From assembly GCA_010356995.1 (NCBI GenBank), contig ML996698.1, positions 121,923 through 185,922 on the forward strand: a DNA stretch of 64,000 nt, given 5' to 3'. Positions 9,193-64,000 of this stretch are shown here, one piece after another. How positions within the stretch are numbered: the stretch's first letter is position 1; every line of letters begins with the position of its first letter. This DNA comes from Trichodelitschia bisporula (lineage: Eukaryota). The notes under the pieces were generated by a model. The model worked only from the letters and a program-made list of their open reading frames with translations. It made no database searches and had not been told where the DNA came from. The position numbers were made by a program, and so were the translations under genes.

Positions 9193-9265
<73 letters not shown>

Positions 9266-10401: not shown

Positions 10402-10457
10402 CAGACGTCCAAGCACACAACTGCTGGAAGCCGTGTATTACCACAACCAAAACGCAG

Positions 10458-38308: not shown

Positions 38309-39424
38309 CTACATTACAATACAACAACCTCCTCCAGATTCCTTCGTCTTTTGTACAGGTTTGGCACTTGATGAAGGCGTCCGAGCAGTAGGGGGCCGAG
38401 CAGTCCGCGGTCGAGCAGTGGAGGGTCGCGCAGTGGGAAGGCGAGCAGTGGAGCCGCCAGCGGTTGGGGGACGAGCGGTGCGGGTGCGAGAGTGAGACCG
38501 GGCACTCGGGGGACGATTAGACCGTGACCGTGGCCGAGCAGTTCCTTGTCGCGTTGACCCAGGGCGATCTTGAGGCGCAGGGGCAATATAGCCCGAAACC
38601 AGGGCCTCCATCATACGAGTTGTGACGACAGATGCCCTTGAGTGAATCTTCTGTGCGCCGAAGTTTCCGCCCGTATTGTCGCCAGCTTCGATCAGCGCCG
38701 GCCATACAACGAGGGCCAAATGGGTACCAGTGGAGCGGTCCCACTCCCTCTGGGGTATGTCGTATTCATCCATACCCAACGTCGGTCGAAAGCGCTGCGT
38801 AATCCGATTTTCACCCAGAGCCGTTATCATCAACAATGGCCATGTCTTGAGGAAGTAGTGCGAGACTTGCTTTTGAAAGTCTCGGTCGAGGCTCACGGCG
38901 GTTTCAACCGCATTGCGAAGTTGATGTTCCAGCGGACGTGATATTTCTGGAAGATACCTTCGTATATCGCCGACCAGGTCGTCCTGAAGCATGACAAGCA
39001 AGTCTTGTCGAACTTCGGGCTGGACTTCGTAATCATTGGCCAGCCGCCATCTTCGCAATTGGAGCTCTGCTTCGTCGTTTCCGGTACCTAAAGTATGAGT
39101 CGCTGGGGTGATCTAGGGGAGAATACACATACTTTCCAAAAGCCCCTCATGCGACCTTTCGGTCCGCCAGAAGAAACCTGAGCCGGCTCTCTCGTCTCCG
39201 AAGACATTTCCCGTGAGAAAGGCCCATATATATCCAATGATGAAGGGCAATCGGAGCTCTGCGGTGTTGAGGCAGTATTGAGCATCAGGGGAAACAGTTC
39301 CCAGCATCCACGCATTATTTGTGCCTGTTTGTCCGAAGCCGGCGAATTCAGCGGTGACAGCTGCCTGATCGACTTTGCCTCTGAGGTCATAATATCGGGC
39401 TGTAAGACCAACGACATCTCCCAT
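38309..39424 (-). CDS. Uncharacterised helical protein with C-terminal CaaX box (GGGCCIVM*); intron 39088-39132
   Basis: The GTATGT...TAG intron joins ORF 39113-39424 to ORF 38309-39058 in frame (356 aa). Motifs YIWAFL...VF...FFW, LRRWR, AVSLD..F..Q, LVVWPAL...G...G.NF; (TARPP)n tail. Confidence 0.7.
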
Positions 39425-40241: not shown

Positions 40242-43200
40242 CTATTCTATCATGCTGGGAACAAGGGACAGCAGGGAAGGAAACACTGCTCCGGTATGAC
40301 GCAATAGTAAGCTCATATCTGCTAGAGGTTCGTGGACGGGCACACTTTCCGAATCCGAAGACGTTGCAATGTACTGCTCAGATATCAATTATTTAGATGC
40401 ATAGGGAAGGGGGCAGGAAACTTACACTCGTTTGCTGCGACAGTTCATCCTCTGCATCAGTCAGGTCAGCCAATGTGGAATCCTCAGTCTCTGCAGTTCC
40501 GTTTATACCTAGAACAAGAAGGTTAAATTAATTCTGGACATCAAAGCGCGAGAAGTGGAGACTACAGAACTGGTGCAACATACGAAGTTCCGAATCGTCC
40601 AGCATGATTCGGCGCGGAAACCTGCTGAGAGAGTATCGATTCAGAGGCTTGCCAGGCGACGTAAGCAGCAACGACATATCAACCTGGGCATTTTTCGTGG
40701 AGACTGCCAGGTTGCGGATGATTACATAGGGGTCTCGTCCAGATATCATCCGCTCAACAGTTTCCTCAAGCTCAATCTGTGAGAAGGTCAGATTTCTCAA
40801 AGCGCCATCAGATCAAGTAAGACCCGTATCCACAAATACTAGGACTCGCAATCGTTTCATGCACCTTTTGGAGACAAGTGTACTGACCTTTTGAATAGTG
40901 TTTCCGCTTTCTCCACATGTGCACTCTCGAACTTCGAGAGACAGTTTCACGCCAGAGCGTTGCCGTTGTACGAGAAAAGTACCTAAGGCTCTGATATAGT
41001 CTTTGCGCTCCCTCAGGCGACAAACAACTTTTCCTTTTCGCAAAGCGAGTAAGCGACGTAAGAAATGGTGGGAGGGCCGAGCATATACCCGTTATCTTGT
41101 ACCCAGAGCCTTCACCGGTGGGCACCGGTAAGGTCGAGGCTGTGAAGAAGAATAGACTGGCAACAAGATTCATCACTATCCTATCAATGACTGTAAGTTG
41201 AGTGTCCAGGTAGCTCTGGGTTTGGCGCTGGATGCGGTCAAAGTGCTTCATTGCGTTGGTACCGTGGCTTGGATCGATCGAGAGTCTGGGGTTGATTCGA
41301 ACGTAGCGTTCTCTCAGCTGACGTGCCGCATTTTCTCGATCGCTGACCAGGAAATCTTGCCACATTGACTCCGCATCTGGAATATCAGGCAAGCGAGATT
41401 CCTGCTAACCCCTCAGTGGATTTCGCAACACTCATGGAAACACGTACCCAAAACTTGGGGCCTTTGCGACTAGAGTGTGTAGTGGGGCTTATCCTGTCGT
41501 CAGGACTGACGGGTTCGGTGCCATTGTATCCGGAACCGATTGAAAGCAGGAGGTCGGGATCAACAGCAGCTACATCAGTCCATATTCTTCTCATCTCTGC
41601 GTCGACAAGTTGTATCGGGTTGTTGTAGCGCAGCGTGCCATCCAGATAGCTTCGATGTGTTCTTGAATGTGTGAAGGACTTGAATAGTCGAGGAAAGGCG
41701 GATGCGGCTGCGCCCGCCTCCCATACCTGCAATTCTGATCCGCGATCATCAGGCCTGTGGAGTTCATAGTCGCCAGAAACGCTCCCGGAATGGCTGTAAT
41801 TCGCCAGAAGGACTGGTTTCCGAGTTATTTGGTCGGTTGCTGTTACGGCGACTTTGACATTGCTGTGAGTTCTGCCCGGTTCGTCACGTCCGAAAAGGGC
41901 AGTGCATCCTAAGCTTGTTTTCAAAGTCTCATATAGAGGAGTGGTCTTCAAAACGCTCCTATGGCGGAAGGGCACTAATTTGCTGATGCCGGGAACTCTG
42001 AAAAGCACACGGGGCCTGAAGGCGTTATCGCGAAATGTATCCTGGTCTTCGAGGCATTCACCGACCGTTTTCTCCCGGACGCCGAGGCTGAGCGCTAGGA
42101 TTGCACCGGCACTAAAAAGAAGTCAGCAAACTCTACCCGCATTAAAAGACAGTCTGCTTACCCGGAACCAACCATCAGATCGAAGAAGGCCTGTATGGGG
42201 ATTTCTGATGGAAGTTCCCTTTGAAGGGCGCGGAGAACTTCCAACTCGGCAATAGCGAGAACCCCTCCGCTAATCACCGATTAGCTTCTAATTAGGTTCG
42301 GTCAAAAAAGAGTACTTACCCATCGAGACTCAGCAATCGTACACCCGCCTGCTCTGGTTTGAACCGGATAACATGCACTTCCGGTGCCGCACCCGATGAA
42401 GACGCATGGAGGGGGCAGCCCGTTAGCGTGACTTCATTGTAGGTATGCAGCTTGTTTCCTTGGGCCTGAACACACTTTGTGCACAGTACATGTCCACAGG
42501 CCAGTGGATGCTCCGGAGCAGTTGCCAAACAACCAAGACATGTGGTCTGGCTAAAGAATTTGGGCCACCCTAAGTGAAAGGCTTGGAGGAAACGATCGAT
42601 TTTCTGCGAGTGCAAGGGCCATATGTCGTCAAGACCTTCACGGGTAGGGCCAAAGGAAAGCCGTGTTTTCAAGTCGTCTTGGATGCTGGATATGGCCTTC
42701 CTGATAAGGTCGATCCATTCGTCAACCCTCGAACTCGAAAATCGGGGGTCTGGTTGGTAATCGCCTCGTTGGATGATGCGCCCGTCACAGTCTTGATGGC
42801 CTTTCAGGCCGTGGATTAACTTGACATTGACGCAATGCCTGTCTCCCTTGCTGAAGCCGCATGGCCAGTATTTATCGCAAAAGGTAGTGAAAGCATCCTC
42901 AAACGATGACTGGTATTGGCGAAAGATTTCAGAGTCGGTCGCCCATCCTATTTGCAGTTAGCAGGGCACACTGACTGGTAATTTCACGTCCGCACCTTGT
43001 TTGCGCACCCTCACAACGTCTAAGACAACACAAGAGGCCACCAGTTCGGTGAATGTGTTGTAGATGTCTTCATCCTTAGCCCTATCCCGCGCATCACAGA
43101 TACAGAGGGCAAGCCGCACAACGTGGTTGGCGAAGTTTTGCGGGATCGGATTGAGCCTGAGGGATACCCTGACAAAGTTGAAGGGCTCGTTCAGTTTCTG

Positions 43201-44711
43201 GGTGAAGTGGTCAAGGGCGGATCGCAAGTACACGTTAAATGTTTGTGCTTCAAGAAGCATGTGCGCTTTTTGCTTTGCCTTGTTGGACTCCTCGCAGCCA
43301 TCTTGGATCTTTTGCCTTAGCTTGCCGAGTTGCGTATTTAAGCGACTGTATCTGCCATCGGTCGCTGCTGGAAGTCGGACGACAGTAAATGAAGAATAGT
43401 AGCGCAGGATGAGGTCTTGGATAGTCTGATCTCTTGGTTCTGTGGTGCCAGCTTCCGGTGCGCCAGCGGTGCAACTCACATTCAAGTCGGCCATAAGCTT
43501 CTGTGCATGCCTTGTAGGCAAATCGTTGACAAGAGCCAGCAGTTCATCCCTTGTCTTATTAGTATCCCATTCGTCGTCAGGATTTTTGCGGGAAGGCGCT
43601 ACGGCGTTCAGAGCTAGAATAACGTGCGGAAGAGTTGGCTGGTTGACCGATGTTTCAAGAGAGTTTGCACCCCACTCAATCAGATTGTACAAAGCATCTT
43701 GGAAGGTCCTAAAAATCATTAGGCTGAAGAGCGACTGATGGAAATGGCCCTTACTTTGGATTCTTGCATACATAAACGACGACAGCAGAGAATGCGTATA
43801 GCACGCGTGGGTACAGGTGGCCAACAGCGAACCGTCTGTCGGAAACTGATACGCCCGGCTGCATCCTGGATGGTGGCTTGCTCAGAGAGTCGGGTCTGGC
43901 CCATTGCAAAACTCGTACACGGCTTGCAGTAATTAGAGGATCATGGTCGTCCGGCTCGCGTCGTCGGTTGGCCATTGGCGACAAGTCACCGCCCTTCAAG
44001 CCTTCGCAGTCGACGTACAGAATGGGCTGGTCCTTGTCGTACGAGTCGGGGTCAGCATACAGGTGAACGTCAGCTGATATGGGAAGTGTATCGTTCGATG
44101 CATCCACAACAGGAGTCGGAAACTCGTCCCCGGATAGGCGACAAGACTCAATAAGCATTCTGATTAGAGTGCTCTTGCCCGCTCCTGTGAAGTATGGTGT
44201 TAGCACATCCCCACATATACATGATGAACTCACCTGTCTCGCCCACAAACGACACAAGTTGTGGGTACTTCTCAGGCGAATTGGCCTTAATGTTTCGGGT
44301 GACGATATCGGTGTATGCATCGAACTCTTCGAGGACGGGGGTATCCGAACCGTTCTGTCGCCATCCTTCACCAGGTTAAAACATGCGGCGCAGGGGAACA
44401 AGATGGTACATACCTAACCACTTTGTCCGTTCGTCGAGTATGTGGGCATTGTCGTCACTCGAGGCGTGGAGGATCTTGTGGAATCTGTCATGCAGTAGGG
44501 GGTTTTCCTTCTCGTGCACTTGCGGTCCGCGTGACTTTTTGCGATGAGCTTGTTGTCTGTCCCAGCAGACATCACATAAACGAAGGTTACAGTTCGGACA
44601 GTACGACACGGGGGAGTCTCCGGGTTTGCAATCATCCCCCTCACACAAAATCGCATCTGTATCCACCGAGTTCTCAGAGTTCTGAACGTCCAGGGAGCTA
44701 CTGGAATCCAT
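40242..44711 (-). CDS. Multidomain protein, copy 1: B-box-like finger + GBP/atlastin-like P-loop GTPase + RING-like finger + patatin (catalytic Ser absent); about 12 exons
   Basis: Hand-spliced with GT-AG introns: CPNC..LCDVCW...H; LVSFVGET|GAGKST; DCEG; WPC...CVN...H..KGHQ; CLGC..CGHVLCTKC..CPLH; LLSLDG|GGVL; MVGSG|AG; VWEAGAA.SA.P; YLDG..NNP; LLSIGSG. The last two exons (40508-40426, 40373-40242) are less certain. Confidence 0.85.
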
Positions 44712-45961: not shown

Positions 45962-46684
45962 ATGCCGTTCCGCATCCGCGACGCCGTCCCCGACGCCTCA
46001 AACACCGATGCCAAGTTCATCACAGCCGCCTTCGACTCATGCATCCCGCACCTGGCCACTATCGGCAGCGCCAGCCCATGGGGAACCGACTCGCTGTCTT
46101 CGGTCCGCCCCAACCTCATCGACCGCTACATCGCCGCCGTCGCCGACGCCGAGAGATACCGTCTCACCAGTTCCGGCCCCCCGGTGCGCGTCCTGATTGC
46201 CGACGCCCGCCTGCCGAGCGGGGAGTACCTCCCTGTAGGCGCGGCGACCCTGCGCGGGGGATACATCTCCAAGTATGTGCTGGAGCAGAAGCACTTGCAG
46301 GACGTAACCAGCAGGGGGTTGGCTGGGGAAGAGGGCGGGTTAATGTTCTTGGAGACTCTCGTCACGGATTTCAGCGAGGCGACCAGAGAGTATCGCAAGG
46401 GTGCCGCGGCCGCGCTGGTGAAGTATAAGCGGGAGTGGGTGGGGACGGAGTTGGGGATGAGTGTGATTTACCTTGACTGCTGGGCAGGGAACGAAGGGAA
46501 GTTGTTTAAGTATGTCACTTTCCTGGAGTGACCCAAGACGCTAGGGCTGAGATGGAGAAATTTACGTGAGGCGATATGCTGACCGAGAGACAGGTTCTAC
46601 GAAGCACAGGGCTTTCAAAAGGTGGATGGGTTTATGTCTGAGGGGTGGTCGGGTATGTTTATGCGAATGGACCTTGGGAAGTAG
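45962..46684 (+). CDS. GNAT family acetyltransferase, copy 1; 1 intron
   Basis: GS..WG, LETLVTD...RKGAA, YLDCWAGNEGKL.|FYE.QGF. The last exon follows CTGAC...CAG and ends at TAG 46682-46684. Confidence 0.85.
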
Positions 46685-47240
46685 GATGCGGAGTAGTAAG
46701 GGTTCTTCAGATAAGCTTTTGTTTCGGAGCATAAATCTGGCTTTCGCAACTGGAATCAGCATGGTGATGTTGTCATCCAGGGGTTGCCACTGATTCTCTG
46801 AGTGAGTAATCGTCGCCCTTGATGGGATGAGTGCGAGTAGCCTTGATTTCCGAGATACCCGTGGGTCAATACTGCTCCTTCCTTCAAGTCAAGCAATCCG
46901 AGCATCACTATCCGGGATAGGAGATTGTCAGCAGGAGCTGGGAGAGTGTGAGATCTTTATCGGTGTGCGTACTTCGAAGGTAGAGCTGCAAATGGGTCAT
47001 GTGATGCCGGTTGGCCTTCGGCGGAACCGTTATCGGGGGTGCGCACGGGCCAGCTTGTCCTATGGGGTTAATATGCAGCGGTAGGGCTGGGCGTTGATGG
47101 GTGAGGGCTGGGGTTGGGGGGGATGGATGGGGGGGTGGGTTGTTGAGCTGCGTTGTTTCTTGTTTTTGTTTCTAATTCTACATTTGACAGCAAGAGACGC
47201 TCCTGCGCCTGTGGCTGCGCGTTTGGACGGCTGAAGTCTG

Positions 47241-48712
47241 ATGGTACGCGGGGCACACTTCACCGGTTGGAGATGGCGGTGGGTGGGAGTATTGGTTTGG
47301 TGTGTGGTCGCGACGGCGGAAGCAGCCCGGCCATGCGTATTCCCTGAGGGACGAGAAGCGGTTTTTGTAAGTCCGCCCTCTATTCTACCCCGGACTCCGG
47401 GGTTCAGGCTTAGGCCGGGGGCGGGGCGCGAAGGGTGAGTGCCTTTAATGAGTGACGGTTACGGGCTGACGGGATAGATGGTCGGATTTGGTACTGGGCA
47501 AAGAGCGGGTGGCAGTATGGGAGGATGGGGTTTGGGTCCGGCGAGGATGGGGGTGAGGGTGAGGGCGGGGCCTATCTGACAAGCGTCTTCGGCGTCGAGT
47601 GTGACGGCAGCCTCACGATGCACCTCCCGCCGGGCAAGGCGCCGGTACGCCACCGTTCCGCCGGCCATCTACGCGCTCGAGATCTCTGTCCTCGTCCCTC
47701 CTCCCGCATGCGCCGGTGGCTCTCCACCATTCTCCCCACCCTCCACCGGCGCCAAACCCCCTCCCACACCACGCACTACGACCTCTTTGCCTTCCTCACC
47801 TCCCCAGTATGGGGTCTCGTCAACGACCGCGAGCAAGAAAGGGTACGCGCCGCGCTGTCCAGTGATGCCGTTTGGGTTAGTAGCGGAGGAGAAGCACTGC
47901 GCACGGCCGGCGAGTTTTAATGGGTGTGGGGCGGAGAATGGGATGAAGGTGCCGGATTTTAGGTTTACGGTTTGTTGTAATATGCATGATTTGTGCTATG
48001 GTAAGTCAACCAGACCCTTGGGAAGAGAGATGGGGAAGAGAGGAGAGGGAGAGTGGGGAGTGATGATGGGATAGAGGCTAATGGGGATGCTCAGATGATT
48101 GCGGTACGCCATTCGAGGAATGCAACGCCCGCTTCCGCGATTGCATGCACGCCGCCTGCCACGCGTACTACGGGAGCGACACCAACACCGGCCCTCCAAC
48201 AACTACCAAACCCTCCTCTACCTCCACCAGCAAAGCGTCCACCACCAGTAGACCTCCCACCACAGGCCCCGCCCGGCGTGCCTCCTCCACCGCCTCTCCT
48301 AGTACCATCCCCCCCTCCACCAAACCCACCGCCCCTCCCCCTCCCTCCGCAACCCAACCCCCTCTCCTGGACCCACTGGGGCTGCGACCTGCTAGCCAAC
48401 ACCTACGCCGAAGCCGTCGGCACCTTATTCGGGGGGTGGTCCTTTGCGCTGTCCACCGCCGACCGGTGCGCCTGCGCGTGTCCCGCAGAGACATTTGACT
48501 GCGGAGATATCTGCCTTAGGAACTGCACCGAGCGCTGCAGCGTGCTAAACTGCGCCGACCCGGCTGTGGGCGCAGTACCAAAACGGCTGGGGTGGGGGAG
48601 GGAAGGTGTAGTGCCCATAAGTAGTGGGAGTGCGGCGCCGAGTGGGGCTAATGTCACGGTTTTCACTTCGGGGGGTAACCTACAAAGTTCCACCGAATGT
48701 ACTGCGTATTGA
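47241..48712 (+). pseudogene. Inverted, truncated, frameshifted copy of the group XII-like PLA2 gene at 8064-10401
   Basis: Same peptides (RPCVFPEGREAVF, FNGCGAENGMKVPDFRFTVCCNMHDLCY, WTHWGCDLLA). It has a deletion after the first donor, +1 nt near 47836 and -2 nt near 48355; homology ends at about 48670. Confidence 0.85.
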
Positions 48713-48997
48713 CTGCAAAACTGGAGCTTCCTGCAAAGCTTGGCCTAGTAACTGGTGGCGATGCAGTTTGCACAAGTTGCATGGACCCTGTGGTCCTCTT
48801 GTTACATCCGTCTTTTATTTACTCTACACTTTGGTTCCTTACATCACCACGTTACCGTGACACCATTGTGTCAAACCAGGTGTCTCTACGTCTCACATGG
48901 CATCACCGGACGACGGATAACTGAAGTACCCAAGCTGGCTGCCAGGCAAGAATCCCAGCTTCCGAGGGGATAGCATCTATATTACAGACGGCTAATG

Positions 48998-51900
48998 CTA
49001 CATCAAGATACATGAGCAACATCCCCCAGCAACCTCCGACGCACTTGTGGATCTGCCGGCCAATGTCGAAGGTCGAATAGTGGTAGGCTGAGCAGCAAAG
49101 GGTCGATCCGTACGAGTACGGGACTGAGACCGGGCACTGGGAGGACGATTAGACCATGACCGTGTAGTTTCAGGTCCCGTCGGCCCGGGGCCACTTTGGG
49201 GCTTGGTGGAATCCGGGGAGGTCCCAAAGTGCTGCTCACGCGTCACGTCATTAGATGAACAGAAAGGGGTGAAGGAGCCTCACTCTTGTTTGCTGTGACT
49301 GGCTGTCCCTAGCAAGGGATGTCTTGGAAGAACACTCCCCTCCGACCCCAGGAATTATGAAGCTCGGATCTCGTGGATGTTCGTTGACCAGCACACTTTC
49401 TGAGTTTGAAGAAGTTTGCAACGTACTATCCAAAAATACATTTATTATAAACATGGAGAAGAGGGCCGGAAACCTTACATTTGTTTGCCGCGACAATGCA
49501 TCCTAATGAGTAAGTTAGGCAGCCTAGCATTCTGGGGCTCTGCAACTACGTTGATCTTTGGAGCCAGAAGGTTAGATCCATTCTGAGCATTACAGCGAAG
49601 GGCTGGAGATGGCCGAATTAATGTCATGTACCAGGTCCAGATTGTCCAGCATGACTGGGCGCGGAAACCTGCTTATTGAGTGTCGATGCGAACCCTCCCC
49701 ACGCGACATGAGCAACGACATATCAACTTTAGCATCCCTCGTGGAGACTTCCAGGTCGAGGATGTACAAATCGAATATCGATCCGTACATCATTAGCCTA
49801 AAGGCTTCGCCAAGCGCAATCTGAGAGAGCATTAGAGATCCCGAAGCGGCATTTAATAAGATCCCTTATCGGGCAGATGTCGGGGCTTGCAATCTTCCCG
49901 TTCACCTTTCAGAGGCAGTCGTACTCACCTTTTGAATAAGTCTTCCGCTTCCTACGCCTGTGCACTCTCGAACTTCGAGAAAGAGTTCCTCACCGCTCAT
50001 TTGCCGTCGATCAAAAAAGGTTCCCAGAGCTTCGATATAGCCCGAGTTGTCATTGAAGCGGCAGATAACTTTTCCTTTTCGCAAAGCGTGTAAGCGGCGT
50101 AAGAAAGGTGGGAGGACTGACACTTACCCGACACCTTGTACCCCTGTCCTCGACCTACGGGCGACGGCGAGTACGAGACTGCGAAGAAGAACTGACTGGC
50201 AACCAGTTTCATCGTCAACCTATCAATGACCTTTGATTGAGTCTTCAGGTATTCCCGAGTTTGCCTCTGGATGCTGACAAAGTCCTTCACTGCAGAGATG
50301 TCGTTGCGTGGGTCGGTCTTCAGTCGAGAACTAGGGTTTATTCGAACGTAGCGGTCTTTCATTTGAGGTGCCGCATTTGATTGAACTGTGTCCATGAAAT
50401 CTCGCCAAGTTTTGTCCGCATCCGGGATACTGCGACCGCGAGATTCCATCTAACCTCTTAGCGGATTTCGCCACACTCAACAAAAAAACGTACCAATTGC
50501 CGGGATAGACGATGACCAGGACATCGAATGGAGTCTATCTTGTCGCTAGCATCAACAGATCCAGCGCCGCTGTGTCCGGAACCAATTGAAAGCATGAGGT
50601 CGGGGTCGGAGTCAGCTACGTCTGACCAAAGATGCTTCCTCTCTGCGTCAACCATTTTTATCGGATTGTTGTTGATCAGCGTGCCATCCAAATAGCTTCG
50701 ATGTGTTTTTGAATGCGTAAATGGCTTGAATAGTGGGCGAACGGCGAATGCGGCTGCGCCTGCCTCCCATACTTTCAATTCTGCTCCGCGATCATCAGGT
50801 CTGTGAAACTCATATTCGCCAGAAGGACTTGCGGAACGGCTGTAATTCGCCAGAAGGACCGGTTTCCGACTTATTTGGTCGGTTGCCGTCACGGCAACTT
50901 TGATGTTGTGGTGAACTCGGCCCGGTTCATGATGTCCGAAGAGGAAAGTTCTTCCCAGGCTTGGTTTCAAGGTCTCATACAGAGGGGTTGTTTTTAGAAC
51001 GCTCCCGTGGCGTAAGGTAACCAGTTTATTGATGAAGGGAACTTTGGAAAGCTCACGTTTCCTGAAGGCGGTGTTGCGAAGTGTAACGAGGTCGTCGGTG
51101 CATTCATCAATCGTTTTCTCTCTGACGCCGAGTTTAAGCGCTAAGATTGCACCGGCGCTAGAAAGAAGTTAGCAAGCTCTGTCCACACTCAAGGCTGGTG
51201 GATATACCCGGAACCGATGATCATATCAAAGAACGCCTGTATGGGGATGCCTGATGGAAGCCCCTTTTGAATAGCCCTGAGAACTTCCAGTTGGACGACA
51301 GGGAGGGCTCCTCCACTGATCGCCGATTAGCTTTGTTTCAAGTATTGCCAGGCAGCACCCACCCATCAAGGCTCAGCAGTCGTACACTTGCATGCGGTGG
51401 TTTGAATCGGAAAGCCTGTTCTACCGGTGCCACATCCGGAGAAAGTACATGGAGAGGGCAATTTTTCAGCTTAACTGAATTCAGGGTAACCAGCTTGACT
51501 CCGTGTGCGTGAACACACTTTGTGCAGAGTACATGTCCACAGGTCAGTGGATGCTCCGGAATAGTTGCCAAACAACCAAAGCATGTTGTCTGGCTGAAAA
51601 AATTCTCCCACCCGTAGTTAAAAACTTCGAGGAAGTTTTCAATATTCTTCAAGTGCAAGGGCCATATGTCGTCAATACCTTCACGGGTGGGGCCAGAGGA
51701 AAGCCGAGTTTTTAAGTCATCCTGGATGCCAGATATGGTACTTCTGATGAGGTCAATCCATTTGCCGACCTCCGGGCTTGAAAATCGTGGGTCCGGCTCA
51801 TATTCACCTCGTTCAATGACGCGCCCTCCAATGTCTTGATGGCCTTTTGGACCGTGCCTTAACTTGACATTGACGCAGTGCCTACCTTCCTTGCTGAAGC

Positions 51901-53817
51901 TGCATGTCCAATATTGATCGCAAAAGGTTATGAAAGCTTCCTCAAACGATGGCTGGTACTGGTGAAAAATTTGAGAGTCGGTTGCCCATCCTCCTCGCGG
52001 TTAACAGAAACACATATATTGATTGTTTAACGTTCGTACCTTGTTTGCGCACTCTCATGACGTCAAGAACAACGCATGACGCCACCAGTTGGGTGAATGC
52101 ACCGTATATGGCCTCATCTCTGTACCTATCCCGCGCATCACAGATGCAGGCAGCGAGCCGAACAACGTGGTTGGCGAAGTTTTGCGGGATCGGATTGAGC
52201 CTGAGTGATACTTTGACGAAGTTGAAGGGCGCGTCCAGCTTCTCGGTAAAGTGATCGAGAGCGAATCGCAAGTACATGTTGAATGTTTGTGCCGTAAGAA
52301 GCATATGCGCTCTTTGCTTTTCCTGGTTGGACTTGTCGCAGCCGTCCTGGATGTTCTCCCTCAGCTTGTCAAGTTGCGTATTCAAGCGGTTGTATTGGCC
52401 ACCAGTTGGGGCGGGAAGTGGGACGACAGTGAACGAGGAATAGTACCGCAGGATGAGGTCTTCGATGGTCTGGACTTTCGATTCTGTGGCGCCCGCTTCC
52501 AGTGAGACAGCGGCGCGATTCACATTCAAGTCTGCCATAAGCTTCTGTGCATGCTTTCCATCCAAGTTGTTAACATAGTCCAGCAGTTCTCGCGTAGCTT
52601 TATCAGTGTCCCATTCATCTTCAGGGTTTTTGCGGGAAGGTACTGCGGCATTCAAAGCTAGAATGATATGCGGAAGAGTTGGCTGGTTGACCGATGTTTC
52701 AAGAGAATCCGCCCCCCACTCAATTAGATTGTACAATGCATCTTGAAAGGTCCTAATAGTTGTTAGGCTGAAAGGTTGTCTACAGAAAATGGTGCTTACT
52801 TCGGGTTCTTGCACACATAAACGACGACGTCAGAGAATGCGTAGAGCACGCGCGGGTACAGGTGACCAACAGCGAATCGTCTGTCGGAAACCGAAACGCC
52901 CGGCTGCATCCTTGATGGTGGTGGACTTTTGGAGTCGGACCTGGCCCATTGTAACACTCGTATACAGCTCGCAGGGGTCACGGGATCAGGGTCGCCAGGT
53001 CGGTGCCGTCGGTTTGCCATTGGCAGCAAGTCGCCGCCCTTCAAGCCCTCGCAGTCGGCATAGAGAATGGGCCTTTCCTTCTGGCACGAGTCGGGGTCAG
53101 CGTATAGATGGACGTCAGCTGATATAGGGATTGTGTCGTTCGATGCCTCCACAACGGGAGTTGGAAACTCTCCGGGTCTGCATCGAGTCTCAACAAGCAT
53201 TTTGATTAGAATGCTCTTGCCCGCACCTGTCGAGTACAGTGTTAGAAACACTTGTACTCAAGTCTAGGAAACGTACCGGTCTCGCCCACGAACGACACGA
53301 GCTGCGGGTATTTCAAGGACGCATCGCCTCCAGCGTATCGGGCGAAGGTATTGCTGTATGCCTCAAACTCTTCTAAGACGGGGGTATCGGGGCCATTCTG
53401 CGCCCATCCTTCACCAAGTTAAACATGTGGTGGCCAGGAAACAGGTTACTACGTACCAAACCACTTCGTGTCTTCGTCAAATACGTGGGCTTCCCCGTCA
53501 CTCGAGGCGGTAAGGATATCGGCGAGCCGTTTATACACTAGGTAGGGTGTCTTCTCGTGCACACTCTGTCTCGGCAACCTCATGCGGTGAGCGAGTTGTT
53601 CGTCCCAGCAGTCATCACAGAGGATAACTTCACAACTCGGACAGAACCACAAGGACGCTTCCCTGGTCGTGCATCCGCCCTGACACTTAGTCGAACCTAC
53701 ATCCCCCGACACCGTATCCACCGAGTTCTCAACATTGAGGGAGCTGTTGGAATCTGTCTCCTCCACGGTGACCGGCTCGATGCGATCCACGGTGTCCGAC
53801 TCGATGCGACGAGACAT
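48998..53817 (-). CDS. Multidomain protein, copy 2: B-box-like + GBP-like GTPase + RING-like + Ser-less patatin, with a modelled in-frame C-terminal CaaX tail (GGCCSCILM*)
   Basis: Same intron positions as copy 1; VGET|GAGKSI, DCEG, CFGC..CGHVLCTKC..CPLH, LDG|GGAL, IIGSG|AG, YLDG..NNP. The core to about 49632 is solid. The tail needs introns 49556-49631, 49426-49478 and 49232-49283. Confidence 0.8.
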
Positions 53818-55328
53818 GCAGAAGCCTTAGACGCGAGCAACAGGGCAGTTCAGCACACGAAGTGGAAGAAAATGCGGGAAATGCCAATATCAAGGCGCGG
53901 CTGAAAAGAAAAGCGGCTAAGTGGTGACCACACTGACGGGGCATAAAAACGGATAAACCAAGTTCGCTGGACAAAATATGAGGTGTCAGCGAACATTGCA
54001 TTTTTGCCTTACGCGCATTTAGAGTAAGATAAAACAAGCCCCATCCCGTGCGGCTCTGTGGGAGGAACGTACCTCGTAGAATGTTCCAGCCGACTGCATA
54101 ATGCAGCGCTTTGCTGTGTCGTGCGTTGCTGTGTACGATAGCGCGTCCTGCGTGTCACCTTCAATCGGATCAGCGTTCTTCCGGTCCGTGCCAGCTTGAA
54201 CTGCGGGCAGTTTTCTCCAACAAGAAGACTGCACTCCACACCATCTTCTGCTGTATGCCCCGGGCGCCGTCGACTGTACACGTTTCCTCCATCCGCAGCT
54301 GCGCGGTGGACGTTCCAACCAATGTGATAAATTTCTTCGAGTCCACGTTTACCCTTCGATGGCCTTGGTGTTGCAATAGGCTAAATGATGCTGCAACGAT
54401 GCTGGGAACCTTGCTCCATGCTTAGTTAAGGGTGGGCCCGGAATCTGGTGGACCAGAACCTAAGGTATCTCTCTTTGGTGCTTTTGGCTGTGCAAGCTCA
54501 GTGAGTGGTGCACCGAGATAAGAAAGAGATTTCAGCTCTCAGCAACTCAAAGGAATCTAACAATCCTGTTTGGTGTAGTCCCGGCTTTCGGATGTACCCG
54601 TAGACCGAGTCCAGGCATTCATCTATCACTCGCTTTGGTCGGATTTGTCGTCGTGAAATTGTCAGTCAACAGCGAGGAAACGGCCTCATGCAGATCATTC
54701 AACAGCTTGTGTTTTTTGCCCACGTGGCAGGCAGTCCGCCATACCGTCTCAGCCTTGTCCGCCTCCTCGGGCAGCCTTGTTTGTACCTACTAAGCCATAT
54801 GCGTTAAGCAGAACCTCACCTCCATCCATCCTAGAGAAGCAGAAGTCCCCGATCCTGCGCCATTGTATACTTACATCCGAACCTAGGAACCGCCTCCGTG
54901 CCCGCACTTTCATAGGCCTCATTCAACGTCGCGCGTACGTTACCTCTAAGGTGCAAGCCCGCCCACGTCATCCACAGGCTAACCTAAAAAGTGATAGACC
55001 CTCCCAAAAAGTTGTAGCCGGCTTTTGTCAAACATTTTGCCAAGTAAGAAGCAGAGACTATCAGATGGGGTTCCTTCACTTTTTCGGGTAGCCCTTGGTC
55101 CCTCCACTACGCATCGCGTCACCCTGGTTCGGAGAAATGCTTTTCCGGCGCATGTCAGCATCGGCATTCCAACTAGATGACGAGTTGAAGCGTTTCAACT
55201 ATTCTGACGTAGTAGTATCAATAGAGCCTGGTGTTACTAGGCGCATCCTGGCCGCCCGTCAATCTGGAGCACTCTGTCATCTCACCCCAACCCCATCCAA
55301 GATCCCATAAGCCGCCAATCCAGCAACC

Positions 55329-56052
55329 ATGCCGTTCCGCATCCGCGACGCCGTCCCCGACGCCTCAAACACCGATGCCAAGTTCATCACATCCGCCTTC
55401 GACTCATGCATCCCGCACCTGGCCACCATCGGCAGCGCCAGCCAATGGGGAACCGACTCGCTGTCTTCGGCCCGCCCCAACCTGATCGACCGCTACATCT
55501 CCGCCGTCGCCGATGCCGAGAGATACCGTCTTACCCGTTCCGGCCCACCTGTGCGCGTCCTGATTGCCGAGGCCCACCTGCCGAGCGGGGAGTACCTCCC
55601 TGTAGGCGCGGCGACCCTGCGCGGGGGATACATCTCCAAGTATGTGCTGGACCAGAAACACTTGCAGGACGTAACTAGCAGGGCGTTGGCTGGGGAAGAG
55701 GGTGAGTTTATGTTCTTGGAGACTCTTGTCACGGATTTCAGCCAGGCGACCAGAGAGTATCGCAAGGGTGCCGGGGCCGCGCTGGTGAAGTATACGCGGG
55801 AGTGGGTGGGGACGGAGCTGGGGATGGGTGTTATTTACCTCGACTGCTGGGCGGGGAATGAAGGGAAGTTGGTTAGGTACGTCAATTTCCTGGAGTGACC
55901 GAGAACCCTAGGGGTTGAGAGGGAGAAATTTACGTGAGGCGAGATGCTGACCGAGAGGCAGGTTCTACGAGGCACAGGGCTTTAAAAAGGTGGATGGATT
56001 TGTGTCTGAGGGGTGGGCGGGTATGTTTATGCGAATGGACCTTGGGAGGTAG
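55329..56052 (+). CDS. GNAT family acetyltransferase, copy 2; 1 intron
   Basis: GSASQWG, RKGAG acetyl-CoA motif, YLDCWAGNEGKLVR|FYEAQGF; stop at 56050-56052. Confidence 0.88.
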
Positions 56053-56608
56053 GATGCGGAGTAGTAAGGGTTCTTCAGATAGGATTTTGTTTCGGAGCAC
56101 AAATCTGGCTTTCGAGACTGGAACCAGCATGGTGATGTTGTCATCCAGGGGTTGTCACTGATTCTCTGAGTGAGTAATCGTTTTCCTTGCTGGGATGAGT
56201 GCGAGTAATTTCCGAGATATTCTGGGTCAATAATGCTCTTCCTTCAAGTTTAGTAATCCAAGCATCGCTATCCGGGTAGGAAATTGTCAGCAGGAGCTGG
56301 GAGAGTGTGAGATCTTGATCAGTGTGCATACTTCGAAGGTAGAGATGAGAGTGGGCTACATGATGCCGGTTTGCCGGCGGTCGAACCGTTGTCCCGTTTT
56401 AGGGGTGCGCACAGGCCACCTTGTTCTGCCAAGCGGTCGGGCTATCATCGAATAGAGAGTCATTTCCGCAGTTGTAGTCTTTCACGACATCTTTAACCTA
56501 CTGCGTAGACGCTCTGAGTTCGCGAGAGAAATGCATTCGCCGATGCAAGCTCTTCCCGTCCTAAATGTCAGCGGTCACGAAGCAAGTACTTCCCATCTTC
56601 AAATCCAG

Positions 56609-58210
56609 ATGTCTCCTGCTGCCACAACCGCTGAGCCATTGAATGCAAGACCGGTCGGTCAGATGTGAGTACATATTGAAGGTGGCTCTTTCCTTGCGCA
56701 GGAGAAATGCAAGATGCAGGATTCTGCAAGATAACGAAACTCATGATATCCCAGCGAATCGTATTCCACCAGCCGGCACAACCTTGGCTTCTACCGTTGC
56801 GTAGGACAGACGGCTCGATACACCGTCCCGCGCACATCGCTGAAGGACACGAGCCTCGAATCCGCTGTCGAGCATGCCGTTGCGCAGACCATTCTTGCTC
56901 ATTCCATCCTGCAAGTTGGCATCGTTGGCGAAGAGACACGCACTCCGCACTTTGTCTATCTGCCAGCGATCAACTTGTCGCAGCTCCTGAGCTGGGAGCA
57001 CTTCCAGCTAGAGACCCCGGCCGACCGTGACTCAGTTCTCCAGCGCGTGCTTGAGACCCGCCACTCGACTTCGTGGCCAGACATTTCTCGCCGGCCGGGG
57101 TACCACTTCATCGTCCTTTGTCCCGATGTGGGCACTGCCCTGCCCACGGAAACCCTCACCGTGGATATCGTCTTCGCATACCATCATGGCTACGGCGACG
57201 GCCCCAGCGGCACAATACTGCACCGGACTCTCCTCCGTGCTCTGAACAGCCCAGGCTCTGTCCCGTCTTTCGATCCGTCATCCCACGTCCGGACAATCAG
57301 CACTCCGCCCCCGCTTCCACCCCCCCAGGAAGCACTCATTGATTTCAGAATCTCCTGGCCGTACTTCATCAAGGCTCTCTGGACCGAGTTCGCACCCTCG
57401 TTTCTCAAACCAGCCCCGCCGGCGCCAGCGTGGACAGGTAAACCAATCACCCCCTATCCAGACAACACCCGCATCCGCCTGCTTTCCTTCTCCACGCATA
57501 CCCTCTCAGACATGTTGCAGCGCTGTAGAGAGCACTGCACGACTCTGACGCCCCTCCTCCACATCCTCGTCCTGTACTCGCTGGCTAAACGCCTCCCTGA
57601 TACCGAAAATTACGATGGCGGCTTCACCAGCGTGAGCCCGATCTCCCTGCGCCGGCTTCTCCCCCACGGCGGCTTGAAGGGCTTCAACTCGGACGAGAGC
57701 ATGGGCGTCTTTCTGGTGGGCCAGTCGCACCGATTCGCGCCACAAACGATTCGTCGGATCCGTACACTAGCAGAGGGCCAAAGTGCCGCGGAAGACCTCA
57801 TCTGGGAGCTCGCTTCCTCCTTGGGCGAAGAGATCAAGCGCAAGGTCGCCTCGCTACCAAATGACGACGTCGTCGGGCTGATGAGCTATGTGTCCGACTG
57901 GAACGAGCGGTGGAGGAAGCTGATTGGTAAGAGCCGCGAGAGTACCTGGGAGGTCAGCAATGTCGGGGCCACAGACTTTGAAAAGAAAGGCCCGTGGACG
58001 GTTGACAGGCTTGTCTTTTCGCAGTCCGGCCACGTCGCTGGTGCAGCTGTCTCAATCAGTGCGGCTGGTGTGAAAGGAAGCGAGCTGGCCATCACACTGT
58101 GTTGGCAGGAGGATATCATCTCCGAGGAACTGGCGAATGGATTAGCTGAAGACTTGATGAAGTGTCTGACGGCCTTGGCGCGCACGGGCCGATTTGGTGT
58201 TGTGGTTTGA
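56609..58210 (+). CDS. Alcohol acetyltransferase family (CoA-dependent acyltransferase); intron 56665-56754; possible upstream start at 56531
   Basis: RPVGQI|ESYSTSRHNLGFYRCV N-terminus; HxxxDG motif YHHGYGDG; CR...TTLT; WEVSNVG...LVFSQ. Confidence 0.88.
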
Positions 58211-60909
58211 GCCGCCTGCGCGTACGTCACCTCTCGAAGTGCCGAGCCCGCCCACGTCGTCCCTCCACCAACCGACCCGGACCCCAATTCTCCATCCGAA
58301 AACCTTAATATTCAGCCACAGGTGCCCCGCCCGAGGCTTCCGTGCCACAACCATGCCTAAATTATGTGTTCGGCAACATCTCCGGTCGTTGACGGCTTGG
58401 CAGGGCTTTTCCCTATGAGCCCGGAAGTGCCACGCGAGGGGCCCTGGACCCGGGCGGCGGGCCGTGCGTGACGAGGCCGGGCCGCGGTTAAGGGTTTGGC
58501 TGAGGTGGCGGCAGTGGTACCGGAGATGGGCCAAGATGTAACGGGAGGGGAAGGGGAAAGGGAAAGAGGGGTAGTAGTAACGACGGTTAAGATCGCGGAA
58601 GCTATGAATAGATGTATGGTACTTGGGCGCTATTTTGGCGACAGACGTCTGGTGCTCGGCTCGATATTGCTTCAACTGTCCGGGTGCTGGTCACCTCGGC
58701 GTGCGAGGCTGTCGGACGGAGGGTCTCGCTGCGCTGCCCTACAGTGAAAGGCGAGCAGATGCCCAAAGTGGAAATATGTCGCGCCTTGTTGTGATAGCGC
58801 AGATCAATTGTGTGCACCGCGCGCCGTGCGCCTGAGTTTACTGTTCCTGCATCGGTCAAGACCGTCACGATCGCCTGATCATCATAAGGAATCGCAATAT
58901 CAGGCTCGTGCCGGCCAGAACCGCGATCATGCAGCTAGTCAGCTTGCTTGGTCCCACAAAAGTCCGTGGCATGAGCCTGCCTGGAATCACAGCGTTGGAA
59001 GGCCTTGCTCTAGGGTCTCGCGCCCGTTGCTTCCCGATGGGGCTGGTGTTCCCAAGGAGGTTAATGATAGGGATGCGGTGCACATCGCATGTTTGAGGCC
59101 GGGCGAGCGACGTGATCCTGGCAAGATTAGTGCAGAATTGGATGGTGAGTTTATATCGACGCCGCAGATGGTTCTATTTTGGAGGAGCCTATAGGCTTGG
59201 AGGCTTGGAGACTTGATACAGGGCATCGCGGCTATATTGCACACCTTCTCGGCTTCGGAGCTCTTAACCTGGGTACCGAAGGTGCCGGATGTGACCGAAA
59301 GCGGGTGGTCAACAAGACGTCGGTGAGGAGATATCGAAATCGAAGGTGTGCTTTCGTACGAGGCTGATGCTTGATGGATCCGCAATCTAGTCGGTAAGAA
59401 TCAGGATCTTGTAGAACAAGGCCTCATCAGTAAGAGCTACAGTTTGGTCGAAGCTTACCCAGAACGGGCAATCGAGTCGCAAAATTTGTTTGCAACGATC
59501 TCATCAGAGCTGACACTGCAGGGGCGTGGGCTTCAGACACCGTCAGAATCGGGAAACCCCGACTAGCCACTCCGGCGACCACTGGGTTGACGCGGAGATG
59601 ACGGGTTTGGCACGGGCTATTTGTGACTTGCTAGACCGGGGGTTTAGCGGGTAATATACCGCGGTTCTCGGGTTATCCGCACCTGAGAAAACGAACCCCG
59701 TTCACTGCGGGTGGAGAGCAGCATCTGGCCAGGGAGAAGCATGAAGATACACCGCCTAGTCTGGTAGACTTAACGGAGCCTGAGGTGATTCGGCTCTCGG
59801 TTCGAGCCTTCACTCTCAATGGAGTCATCTCGAGTGATCTGATGTGTTTCCACTCCTCAGGTCCTGGTCGGTTCGCCATCGGAAGCTAGTCTCGATGATA
59901 GCGCCCAAAACTTTAACAAACCAGGTAAAAAAAAAAAACGCTCTGCATTTGGATGCACCTCGGTAGACTCACCACTAATCACCATGGGCAGTAACTAGAG
60001 CTACCAACGCTCTCAGAGCATGTCCGAGAGATCGGCCGCGGTGTGGCTCTCCGTATCGGAAGCGTGCAATCTGCAACCCTTGCGCGACCTGGCCCTTGGC
60101 TCATGGATGGTGGTATTCGAGACTGTAACGAGATTGGTGTGTGCCTTCGGGAGGGTCAGGAACAACGGTTCGGCAAGTAGCGTGTGAGAGGGCTTATACA
60201 TGCGGCCGACGACCGCAAGGCTGGAACCGGCGTAGGGCTTGCGAACCACCCATGGAATGACTCGAAGCTTCGCTTGAGGAACCGTCGAATATCTGGAACG
60301 AAAGCACCTTCTACTCTCATTGCATTCCAGTATCTGTCCACATCAGAGATTTGAACTTCTGGAAGGGCAGAGGAATGAGATGCCAGATTCGTCGAGCAAC
60401 TGTGCATCGAGCCGTTAAGCCTTACGTCTAATCAACGTCGGACATTGACATGACCGCAATGAGCACGGTTCACACCACAACGCGCAAGTCCCTTCCAGAA
60501 ATTTGGGCAATCGGCGACGCCATAAATAAATTTGATAGGGAAATAATCAGGGCCAGATGGTGGCGGCGTAGATCCCATGGATGAGCACCCGCGGTCCCCT
60601 GGAGATTGCAACCGACCGCGCACTCTCCTCCTTCTCTACTTTGCAGGCCAACTTGACGCGTAAGTGTAATCGTCGGCTCGGGCCAGTCTGCGTACGTCGA
60701 CTGAGTTCGGGTCGCTCGGGCGGGTGATTTGGTAGGGATCTGGAGGGGCGTGTATATCAGTCAACGAGAATCCCTCTTTCTCCGTCACTCACTATCACAC
60801 TCACTCCTCTTCCACACCAGCAAAGTCATCTCCAACGAGCATCAGTACCTTTTCAGACAGACGTCCTCTCAGTCCGACCTCCTACAACAGAGCCTCCTTT
60901 CACATCAAG

Positions 60910-61455
60910 ATGCGTTTCTCCGTTACATCACTCCTCACTTTCTCCTCGCTCGCCTTCTCCCTCCCCATCGAGCAACAACCAAACGCCAACCCGACCGAAA
61001 CCGCCATACAACAGACTACGCGTGGGCTGAAGACCCTTTCCAACAGCCTCAACGCCCTCACTGCGCGGAACGCCGATGTCGTTTCCTTATCAAGTCAGAT
61101 CATGAGGAATGGCAATGAGTTGACGTCCATCATGCGGGAGGGCGCGTACCAGGTCCGGAGGGGGGCGGACCTTAACCTCAACGATGCCTTATTCCTCACC
61201 CAGCCGGTCAACGATATGATCACCCAGACGCAGCAGACCACCCAGAACTGGGTCGCCAGTAAGCGTGTCATCATCGGCTCAGGAGGCAAGACGGTGACGC
61301 TCAACATCCTAAACGACCACCTGGCTGCTGCGGCAGAGTTTTCGGACGCCATGGTAGCGAAGATGCCCGCACTTGGCAAGTCGATTGCGCAGCTCTATGG
61401 AACACGGGCCAAGATGCTTATCGAGACAGCTATCAACGAGTACAAGAGATCATGA
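60910..61455 (+). CDS. Secreted HsbA / cell wall mannoprotein 1-like helical protein
   Basis: 181 aa with signal peptide and no Cys; pattern L...DA..L, ..K..I...GG...L..L, F..A...K.P, I..AI..Y. Confidence 0.75.
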   Translation: MRFSVTSLLTFSSLAFSLPIEQQPNANPTETAIQQTTRGLKTLSNSLNALTARNADVVSLSSQIMRNGNELTSIMREGAYQVRRGADLNLNDALFLTQPVNDMITQTQQTTQNWVASKRVIIGSGGKTVTLNILNDHLAAAAEFSDAMVAKMPALGKSIAQLYGTRAKMLIETAINEYKRS

Positions 61456-64000
61456 GTGGTGATTGGGTGGGAGCGCTTTTCTTTGAGGTTACAATTTTCT
61501 TCACTGTACAAATTTTCTTCAGCTCTCGGACGTTTTAGAGATTGATTACCAATATGAGATGGTTTCGGTCGGAATCATTGCCTGATCCTGTTCATATGAG
61601 TGAAACGTGACAGAGCTCTCGCCAAGGGGACGGTTGAGGAATTGGCGCTGCTGCAATCATCCGTATTTAAAAGCTAAAACGCTATCAGCTATCATCTTAG
61701 ATTGGTGAGGAGGTTCATCAACGTCGGCGTGGAGAGAATTGCCGGGTATCTCTGCTGCTAGAGATGAACGTCGGGTTGTGGACAGGGTGCCCGAAGATCA
61801 ACGTTCCACGATGTTTATCTGGCGTCGATCCCAAGGCAGCGATTGATGCCTTGCGGCCGCGTGACATGACCTTGAATGTCCACTGAAAGGCCAAAGGGCC
61901 AGCCGAAAAGTCGTGGCACATCCCGCCATAGTATCTGCTTATCATTCAGCGAAAGCCTTGACAAGAGATGGCTACAACTTTTAGGGGAGGTGCTACGACT
62001 TTTTCTGATGGCTCTTTGACATGAAGCAGCGTTCTGGAAAAAGCTGGAAAAGCGTCCCCTTTTCTTGGTCAACCGGCCTTTTAGAAAGACCGGATTCACT
62101 ACTGACTACTACTCGTAGAAAAGGCAGCGGCGGGCCTCGAGGGAGTGAAAAGTGAAAAGTCAGCCAGTGCGCAGAAGGATGACGATGTTTGCGATACTTT
62201 TCCGGCTTCCGAGATGTGTGGCATTATCAAAGTCGTCCCCTCCTGCGCCCACGATGTCGGGAGACCGCCAGCAGTTGTCGAATCCTAGGCCAACCCTCAT
62301 GCCATGAGTATATGGTTGCCGTCTCATTGTTAGGCGGCTCTGTTTAGGCCATGGAGGGGGGGCCTCGTTGCCTGAGGACCGCGTGGAGGAAAACTATGGT
62401 TGGTCCAAGCCCAACGAGGGCCACTGTGGCTGCTAAAGCGGCCACGAATCCACAAGCCATCCTCAAGTCCTGCTATATTCGTGTTGAGCTCCTGTGTTCC
62501 GACCAGCATCTCCCCAGGCAAGGGTCACAGATGCATTAGCGTTGACATGATAGATGCAGCGGTTCTCAAGATGTTAGTCAATCTTGCGAAGGTCTGGGTG
62601 ATAACAAAACGTACGGGCTGTCTAGCACCTGTTCGAAGGCACTGCTAACCAGTAACGCAAGATAGGAAATAAACCTATCGGGAAAGAGCGGACGCTAATT
62701 TCCTGTTGAATCCAAGTTCGATCGCACAGCTGTGTTGTGAAGTATGCGACACAAAAGCAAGTGTCAAGTTGCAAGCCACTTTGAAGGGTCAAGAGCTTTA
62801 TCCGGGGTGTATCACACTTGAAGTCCACTGGCGGTCCGAATCCTGAAAGTTGCTCCCGAAACCCGTAGCACCGAACAAAACCAACATCGGGCATCACAAG
62901 TTCTTAAGCGCCGCGCTGGAACATTTAAGCCCATCAGGCTTAGGCACGAAAGGAGCACGGCCGTTGAGTCCACTCAATAAGGGCGAAAGCCTTGCATCTT
63001 CGTGCGAAATCCCGCTCCACTTGCCACAAAGTATGAGTGTGATTGACTTTTCTGCCTTGTTAACGACAAAATTGTACATGTTAGAGTGGCAGATCCAGTT
63101 CGAGCCACAGAGAATCTCGAAAGCTTGTCTGTGCTGCATCGATGAATTAGCCCAAGCAATTACGGTGCCTCAGAGACCACGCATAGGTTAGGTCCGAAAT
63201 CCAGAAGGGGACGGCAAAGACCGAGCCTCACACCGCCCTTAATGACAGATTCCTTGGTTCTTTTTGATGCGGAACATCATGGCATTGGTACACCTTAACA
63301 TTCGATGGAATCATGGCGTCAGAGAGGATCATGGCGTCACAGGTCATACCGGCGCTCGGACCCAATGCCCGATTTGGCCAGCGATGGGTATTTGGATCTA
63401 GGGCCACCTGAGGGGTCGTGATCCACCGTGTTGGTTGATTTTGCGGGGTTGGAGTTCGCGACTTGCGCGAGTAGCCCTTGACATTCCTCCTTTCGTCCTG
63501 AGTTCGGGTCATTGGGATCGCTAGAATCGGCATGCATCGGTTGGATCTCCGCGGTCTCGAGGCCCCCATACTCAGGATATCCAGAGTAGGCTGTGCTCCA
63601 GTCAGGTCCTTCGGTCTCGTGGCTCGGAGCTCATTCTTCACTAGGGTTGCAGGTTTGAGTGCTTTGCCCTGAAAGTCGGCCTGCATTCCGGTTTCGTATG
63701 TAAGCGCTGGATTTCGTCGGAGCAAGCGCCGATATCTGGTGGCGATTGAGACGATATTGCCTCTGAAGTTGATTCGAGGAAAAAGCGGTTGTCGATGGAC
63801 GGAAGTCAACGCGAGTGGAGTCACATGACCCTCCCATCCCTTTGGAGCCTCAAAACCTCAACACCTGTGCCTGCGAATTCCAAGTCTCTCCAAGCCAACT
63901 CCGAGACGACGCAACATGCAAAGACCAGCCTACCCTGCCCAGTGCAATGCGAAATCGAAATCTCGTTCCGCAGATTTCCAACTCGGTCCAGACTGAAGCG

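Follow-up and report, generated by a model that had tools for sequence, protein, structure and literature searches.

We analysed a window of 64,000 nucleotides from the fungus Trichodelitschia bisporula (positions 121,923 to 185,922 of contig ML996698.1, here C12, in the 25.8 Mb genome G000). Positions below are those of the window unless C12 is named. The window holds two tandem copies of a large gene, here called the host gene, on the minus strand. On balance, we regard the second of these, copy 2, as a transcribed deletion fusion, in which the host gene runs into the 3′ end of a smaller neighbour, the partner gene, that encodes a C-terminal CaaX box. The main product of copy 2 would lack both the captured tail and the CaaX box. 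The CaaX reading frame would be a remnant, or would specify a form made at low level.

The proposed history is as follows. The ancestral unit would have comprised two genes on the same strand, as copies 1 and 3 still do: one for a protein with B-box, GTPase-like, RING-like and pseudo-patatin domains, then the smaller gene for a CaaX protein. After tandem duplication, copy 2 may have doubled ~195 bp of its own 3′ end. It may then have lost the DNA from its last exon through most of the partner, keeping the last ~68 partner codons. The copy 2 transcript, as assembled, crosses the junction with both distal introns spliced. The same assembled form retains the intron at 49556-49631, where translation would stop 11 codons in. 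Since this form stops early, the main protein would be the folded core without tail or CaaX box, like copy 1 and the rest of the family. Most of the captured tail would then be 3′ untranslated region (UTR), and the CaaX frame may be the leftover of a fused form translated until fairly recently, or a low-level survivor.

The evidence on splicing comes from unstranded contigs assembled from two runs (X1 and X2) of one sample. We take these to be RNA; no RNA label is on record, and the contigs do skip canonical introns. Our statements on splice joints cover the 15 joints listed of 33. Eleven of the 15 are CT..AC introns of copy 2. Nine lie upstream and leave the frame open from position 53817, the first in-frame ATG and presumed start. 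The coding region of this form (49590-53817, minus strand) specifies 1,243 residues ending in DNLDLVHDINSAISSPSL. Also among the 11 are 49425>49479 and 49231>49284, each found exactly in both runs, which remove intron A (49426-49478) and its duplicate, intron B (49232-49283). A sequence-only reading of this DNA had proposed that a third intron, 49556-49631 (GTACAT...CTAAC...AAG), is spliced as well. No joint for it occurs among those listed, and the assembled RNA keeps it. Record 11 of X2 has 1,178 nucleotides between 48943 and 50494; this equals 226+142+342+145+323 with the intron kept, and would be 1,102 with it spliced. Depth in bin 49086-49712 was 134.9 in X1 and 358.4 in X2. A prediction made from a single contig gives 135.0 and 358.4 for retention, and 115.3 in X1 for splicing. 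Record 6 of X1 starts at 48361, 30 nucleotides within the adjacent record, as the retention structure predicts. The proposal of three spliced introns was thus borne out for two of them only. For the assembled RNA, the outcome is the one that this reading had itself named as a refutation: this form halts at the stop at 49592-49590, giving 1,243 residues and no CaaX box, instead of the 1,380 residues expected if spliced.

The homologous intron of copy 1 (40509-40583, GTATGT...TAG) served as a control. If it is spliced, 389 covered nucleotides in bin 40308-40934 predict depths of 16.8 and 40.9, and 16.8 and 40.9 were observed; this assignment rests on depth, the corresponding joint lying outside the 15 listed. 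Between copy 1 and copy 2 the splice sites have changed from GTATGT..TAG to GTACAT..AAG. Retention in both runs, splicing of the 11 other copy 2 introns and splicing of the copy 1 homologue together favour the early stop as the main form. Out-of-frame acceptors at 49546, 49540, 49524 and 49503 were also considered; none has a listed joint, and the record lengths leave no space for them. At its distal end, the contig follows the splicing of a convergent transcript on the plus strand, across a GC..AG intron (48946-49007; joint 48943>49006 in both runs, possibly two places further; GCTAAT branch, AAG acceptor), and the bases opposite the ILM and stop codons are removed. Because the contigs are unstranded and this antisense splice lies over those codons, they do not demonstrate sense transcription across the CaaX box.

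At the DNA level, the fused frame is as the sequence-only reading described it. Three GT..AG introns of 76, 53 and 52 nucleotides, with branch-like motifs, can be removed to leave 1,380 codons. The conceptual splice reads DNLDL/INVVAE...KQI/TLQTSS...SQQTR/HFGTSP...GGCCSCILM, with the stop at 49000-48998 and Cys four residues from the end. On the minus strand, the retained intron is followed by a 77-nucleotide exon derived from the patatin gene (49479-49555), 4 nucleotides short of its copy 1 counterpart and open only in the proposed frame. Next is a 142-nucleotide exon (49284-49425), of which ~112 nucleotides are homologous to the last exon of copy 1 and the remainder is a second SQQT exon end. 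The last exon starts with another patatin-gene copy (49209-49231; HFGTSPDS against YIATSSDS in an ungapped comparison). It ends with the captured partner 3′ end (48998-49208), a basic stretch rich in Arg, Ser, Pro and Thr followed by GGCCSCILM, with CILM as the CaaX box. The compensating shifts expected relative to copy 1 are present: a donor shifted 1 nucleotide earlier and an acceptor shifted 2 later (net −3), 77 against 81 nucleotides in the exon (−4), and +1 in the next exon. The tail does derive from a separate gene in copy 1 (49100-49164 against 38468-38532; 83% over 65 nucleotides, E 1.4e-11), and copy 1 is the sole match of the copy 2 tail DNA. The unit formed by SQQT and its intron is likewise doubled. 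The second unit, B (49208-49313), matches the copy 1 unit in 69 of 106 columns, scoring 82.5 where 1,000 shuffles reached at most 20.5; unit A matches copy 1 in 75 of 108 columns, and A matches B in 56 of 109. Homology to the host last exon ends at ~49209 and homology to the partner starts at ~49205, placing the fusion junction at ~49209-49203.

Several observations weigh against a main product that ends at 49590. The tail has a ratio of non-synonymous to synonymous change (dN/dS) of 0.38-0.40 over 37-70 codons, which equals the 0.40 of the core (copy 1 against copy 2, dS 0.55). In a neutral forward simulation (4,000 trials), frame, stop and Cys survived together in 0.3-1.4% of trials at 0.27 changes per site, the value that stands for neutrality since the duplication; the rates are our own rough choice. 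The copy 2 donor, which we considered as the cause of retention, is only mildly weak (seventh lowest of 24 with a small matrix). Most relatives are long-tailed, with a median tail of 270 residues after the last conserved motif (n=102). The contigs themselves smooth over variation. At assembler defaults, an unbroken contig would suggest that less than about one quarter is spliced. Logan contigs are, according to PMC12424806, simplified consensus paths from which rare variants are dropped. Hence, retention is the path kept, and a spliced minority may exist. Finally, PMC7746235 describes introns downstream of a stop as able to trigger mRNA decay in Neurospora. By analogy, an mRNA with two introns after its stop would be a potential decay target, which would be odd for a main mRNA. 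If decay of the Neurospora type applies, retention is under-counted in steady-state RNA.

The low neutral survival suggests that the extension encoded protein through most of the period after the duplication. The in-frame CaaX extension is probably not wholly due to chance, and the cell probably either translated the CaaX form in the past or makes it as a minor isoform. Survival of the frame is compatible, at the sequence level, with a fusion protein whose synthesis ended recently or continues at low level. It is also compatible with a partner gene that remained intact up to a recent deletion. Simulated survival was 7% at 0.1 changes per site and 22-55% at 0.02-0.05, so a recent loss of splicing is compatible with the frame.

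The strongest alternative is a regulated switch, which we think possible but unlikely. Here, the fused CaaX form would be functional and kept by selection, and retention would yield a soluble or decay-limited form. Conditional splicing, upon non-self contact, stress or development, would give a prenylated, polybasic, membrane-bound form, hard-wiring the anchor that the partner supplies in copies 1 and 3. The three exons have 0/1/3, 1/0/1 and 0/1/2 stops in their three frames; the needed frame is always the open one, and all link in frame across the junctions, for which we estimate a chance of ~1 in 27 under random junction phases. The two compensated shifts, the kept stop and Cys, and an acceptor that is the first AG downstream of the CTAAC branch motif point the same way. 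Identity to copy 1 is similar for unit B (65%) and unit A (69%), which would allow an old rearrangement. There is precedent in the CAAX and non-CAAX variants of INF2, described in PMC3237625, and in the truncated GBP5ta, described in PMC6400534. Conversely, the spliced joint was seen in neither run, no such tail occurs in 122 relatives, and the contig over the CaaX codons follows the antisense splice. Silent changes in the tail are explained equally well by a partner that was whole until a recent deletion. In its fullest form, which we regard as doubtful, the switch would mean that a fungal atlastin/GBP-like, RING-like pseudo-patatin captured its partner's prenyl anchor, with a retained intron toggling between unanchored and membrane-anchored forms. 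At most, we would speak of a minor or conditional CaaX isoform of copy 2.

An improbable alternative is coincidence: the gene already stopped at 49590, a recent deletion placed a non-coding partner remnant in its 3′ UTR, and the fusion protein was never made. A random deletion is in frame one time in three, and the path is easily found, since eight AG acceptors lie between 49600 and 49480 and four of them would lead to the CaaX box. The dN/dS of the tail may date from the intact partner. However, this account requires a recent loss of splicing, a recent deletion and a lucky phase together, and two of the three junctions are fixed by the RNA rather than chosen.

More improbable still is that the fully spliced, prenylated protein of 1,380 residues is the main product and that the intron appears in the contigs only through the assembly or through fill-in from antisense RNA. 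Contigs are simplified graphs, and the antisense transcript does extend into the tail. However, the contig is continuous over the intron in both runs, and no second contig adds depth in bin 49086-49712. The 11 other introns resolve as spliced, and two of these lie nearer the antisense gene, so antisense fill-in would fail as a cause of retention.

We turn to the direction of the event, for which the sequence-only reading had offered fusion or fission. The two copies arose by tandem duplication: in a window self-comparison 40309-44708 matches 49360-53754 (75%) and 45906-47061 matches 55272-56427 (90%), and the host proteins are 72-75% identical. The copy 1 host gene (40242-44711, minus strand) encodes 1,280 residues and has 11 introns, placed by homology with bin depths that agree within 0.4. 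It has its own stop after LVPSMIE and no CaaX box. Its partner (38309-39424, minus strand) encodes 356 residues with one intron (39088-39132), ends in GGGCCIVM and has a gapless RNA record at 38236-39084. The stretch between these two genes that the contigs leave uncovered was given no weight as evidence. A third unit lies beyond the window, with a host gene at C12:209612-214555 that has its own stop and a partner at C12:217195-218425 that ends in EKEAGCCCIVM. Both are on the same strand, in the gene order of copy 1; P0009 is identical to the copy 3 translation. The partners of copies 1 and 3 are the only whole ones found in the genome. A quick IQ-TREE run on 38 rows gave (copy 3,(copy 1, copy 2)) with SH-aLRT values of 99 and 100, sister to P0102.

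The partner proteins end in CIVM in copies 1 and 3. A relative from outside the genome, P0010, ends in GCCCNVM, its CaaX box being CNVM; the distant relative P0011 has none. In the host family, Cys at position −4 was found in 0 of 122 proteins, as was a fused partner domain (best E 0.28). These 122 are the 120 listed of at least 226 matches plus two others, and include two models from this locus; family gene models may have wrong ends, as all three from this locus do. On these 122 proteins, a CaaX box was rejected as a trait of the host family. Since the CaaX box belongs to the partner family and two separate genes are ancestral, copy 2 is a fusion, through deletion, and not a fission. Fission, with a fused ancestor and a copy 1 that split as the partner took over the tail, can be dismissed: copy 1 lacks unit B, conceivably by loss, but in copy 3, the outgroup, the two genes are separate and follow the same order, the CaaX box is found in the partners of copy 1, copy 3 and P0010, and no fused host-family protein occurs among the 122. 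Among the partners of copy 1, copy 3 and P0010, a basic repeat shifts position and the CaaX end is constant. An RPGTSS-type repeat lies within the partner domain in copy 3 (C12:217930-218150) and in P0010, and RPPTA-type repeats follow the domain in copy 1.

The domains of copy 2 (49590-53817) are, in order, B-box-like, P-loop with an atlastin/GBP-like fold, helical, RING-like, serine-less patatin and a C-terminal domain. Pfam matches to the B-box and RING types are weak, below cut-offs; patatin (PF01734) scores 57 bits against a cut-off of 27.7. An AlphaFold model of copy 1 residues 1-1012 (72 sequences) has a predicted local distance difference (pLDDT) of 83 and a predicted template-modelling score (pTM) of 0.86. 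It contains a G-domain fold of GB1/RHD3 type followed by a helical domain. Foldseek matches this model to CapV and patatin (E 1e-11 to 1e-7) and, over the predicted N-terminal half, to atlastin-1 (4ido, E 1.9e-7), GBP2 (7m1s, E 4.4e-7), GBP1 and RNF112. Matches of this second group have E values of 2e-7 to 2e-5, 10-13% identity and target-normalised template-modelling (TM) scores of 0.30-0.47. Atlas features place the protein with GBP/RHD3 clusters at 0.90-0.92. PF02263 and PF05879 gave no match at E≤1 for P0002-P0008, and generic P-loop matches were weak. The motifs are mixed. GBPs have GxxRxGKS as P-loop and DxEG as G3. The P-loop of copies 1 and 2 is GETGAGKS, lacking the catalytic arginine of GBPs, and relatives have GVTNAGKS and similar. 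The G3 motif DCEG is present in both copies and in 118 of 122 family proteins. We describe the host, from its modelled fold, as GB1/RHD3 GTPase-like, and do not file it as a GBP. The claim of a prenylated GBP-like product is not supported: the fold is atlastin/GBP-like, but the RNA showed no form other than the one ending at 49590. The parallel drawn to GBP-type prenylation does not hold, because the CaaX box comes from an unrelated neighbour, is not a GBP-type C-terminus and is found in 0 of 122 relatives.

Patatins have a GxSxG nucleophile motif, a GGGxR motif and a catalytic aspartate in DG. The nucleophile is absent here, the equivalent sequences being IIGSGAG in copy 2 and MVGSGAG in copy 1. 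The catalytic aspartate is present in both (YLDG). The serine is retained in only 25 of 113 relatives; in the other 88, GTGTG is commonest, and across relatives the P-loop and DCEG are near invariant. The patatin domain of copy 3 (C12:212157-212952) shows the opposite loss, keeping the serine (GTSGG) with YLGG in place of YLDG. On fold and missing serine, the core would most likely act as a membrane-associated scaffold or ubiquitin ligase, driven by nucleotide, its patatin domain binding lipid without hydrolysis.

Copy 2 belongs to a host family of at least 226 proteins at E≤0.001, ~33-48% identical over most of their length. The family lies in Pezizomycotina and is unnamed, with database labels such as 'FabD/lysophospholipase-like' and 'calcium-independent phospholipase A2-gamma'. 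The 49590 stop sits just past the last conserved motif (SRFPR-like), so the folded core would be whole; in 4 of 102 relatives the protein likewise ends no more than 40 residues from that motif. We found no published description of the family, and no paper on a fungal switch between intron retention and a CaaX box, in the literature listings searched. A fourth, distant host gene (C1:406400-410730) stands apart on a long branch in the same tree. It has a different C-terminal tail and no partner within the surrounding 10 kb.

The partner falls in an unnamed ascomycete family (Atlas 0.95). A Pfam search with it gave no match. Atlas leads below the 0.9 bar were GIL1_IRKI_C (PF24994, 0.80, on 44% of members) and MIEAP (PF16026, 0.77). 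The structure model is poor (pLDDT 46), and Foldseek gave no match at E≤0.001; the best VIA Z was 5.5. Among structural neighbours, one cluster carries a fusion to a G domain (TM 0.66), a hint that the partner fold may go with GTPases. The host-partner pairing is known from two copies in one genome, and the suggestion of the sequence-only reading that the two copy 1 proteins may act together rests on this adjacency. A four-sequence partner profile recovered both own partners and found none at 80 host-family loci from metagenomes; with so shallow a profile and such short flanks (only 16 of the 36 loci tabulated had at least 5 kb downstream), this null is no evidence of absence.

The host resembles known systems in parts. 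Like the GB1/RHD3 GTPases, it has the predicted fold, the DCEG motif and the Atlas assignment. Atlastin matches it as well as GBP does, and it adds B-box, RING-like and patatin domains. GBP1, GBP2 and GBP5 bind membranes through a CaaX box, according to PMC6400534. In copy 2, by contrast, the box was taken from a neighbour, lies ~800 residues past the G domain and is absent from the RNA form seen. Like the patatin-like phospholipases CapV and iPLA2-beta, the host has PF01734 and the YLDG aspartate, and CapV is its best match in both sequence and fold; unlike active patatins, it has GSGAG for GxSxG and GGGAL for GGGxR. As for INF2 and GBP5ta, the latter a 97-residue splice truncation (PMC6400534), a single gene has two possible C-termini, one prenylatable. 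However, isoforms have been demonstrated for those proteins, whereas only the non-CaaX form is seen here, the difference arises by intron retention, and the CaaX exon comes from another gene. The fused end also sets copy 2 apart from its own Pezizomycotina family.

A spliced plus-strand gene (47164-49007) lies between the copies, with a paralogue at 8863-10593 on the minus strand. It carries a CCxxHDxCY motif, and we take it to be secreted phospholipase A2-like; the exon tested had no Pfam match. Its Pro-rich linker is one base out of frame relative to the paralogue and the RNA contig is gapless there, so the gene is either broken or prematurely terminated. The GC..AG intron described above lies in its 3′ UTR, which overlaps the tail of copy 2. 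Divergent plus-strand neighbours, presumably acetyltransferase-like, have first exons at 45962-46531 (copy 1; no Pfam hit) and 55329-55898 (copy 2), with 90% DNA identity to each other. An inverted duplication of 6.3 kb, 94-96% identical, links 55272-61569 to C12:201081-207606 and contains the acetyltransferase-like neighbour and an alcohol acetyltransferase gene (PF07247). Identity is only 38-50% in the host genes just beyond its arms, which points to recent copying or homogenisation of the inner arms. A run of 127 N lies at 28518-28644.

Three database models can be corrected from the RNA contigs. In P0001 the C-terminus is shifted and the CaaX box missing, P0002 lacks 233 N-terminal residues and ends early, and P0003 ends at an unspliced intron; P0001 and P0002 match these genes at 99-100%. 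Copy 2 thus offers a lineage-specific example, resolved in good detail, of a tandem duplicate that captured its neighbour's tail through a deletion; its main transcript makes no use of the attractive in-frame CaaX box. The wider value lies in the host family, a common ascomycete protein combining B-box, atlastin/GBP-like, RING-like and mostly serine-less patatin domains. Were the switch real, the fusion would suggest that the partner serves as membrane tether in an undescribed module of two genes for membrane surveillance, and copy 2 would have arrived independently at the design of a prenylated GBP. If splicing of 49556-49631 proves inducible, the intron would offer a way to test how proteins of this family reach membranes and whether the partner anchors them.

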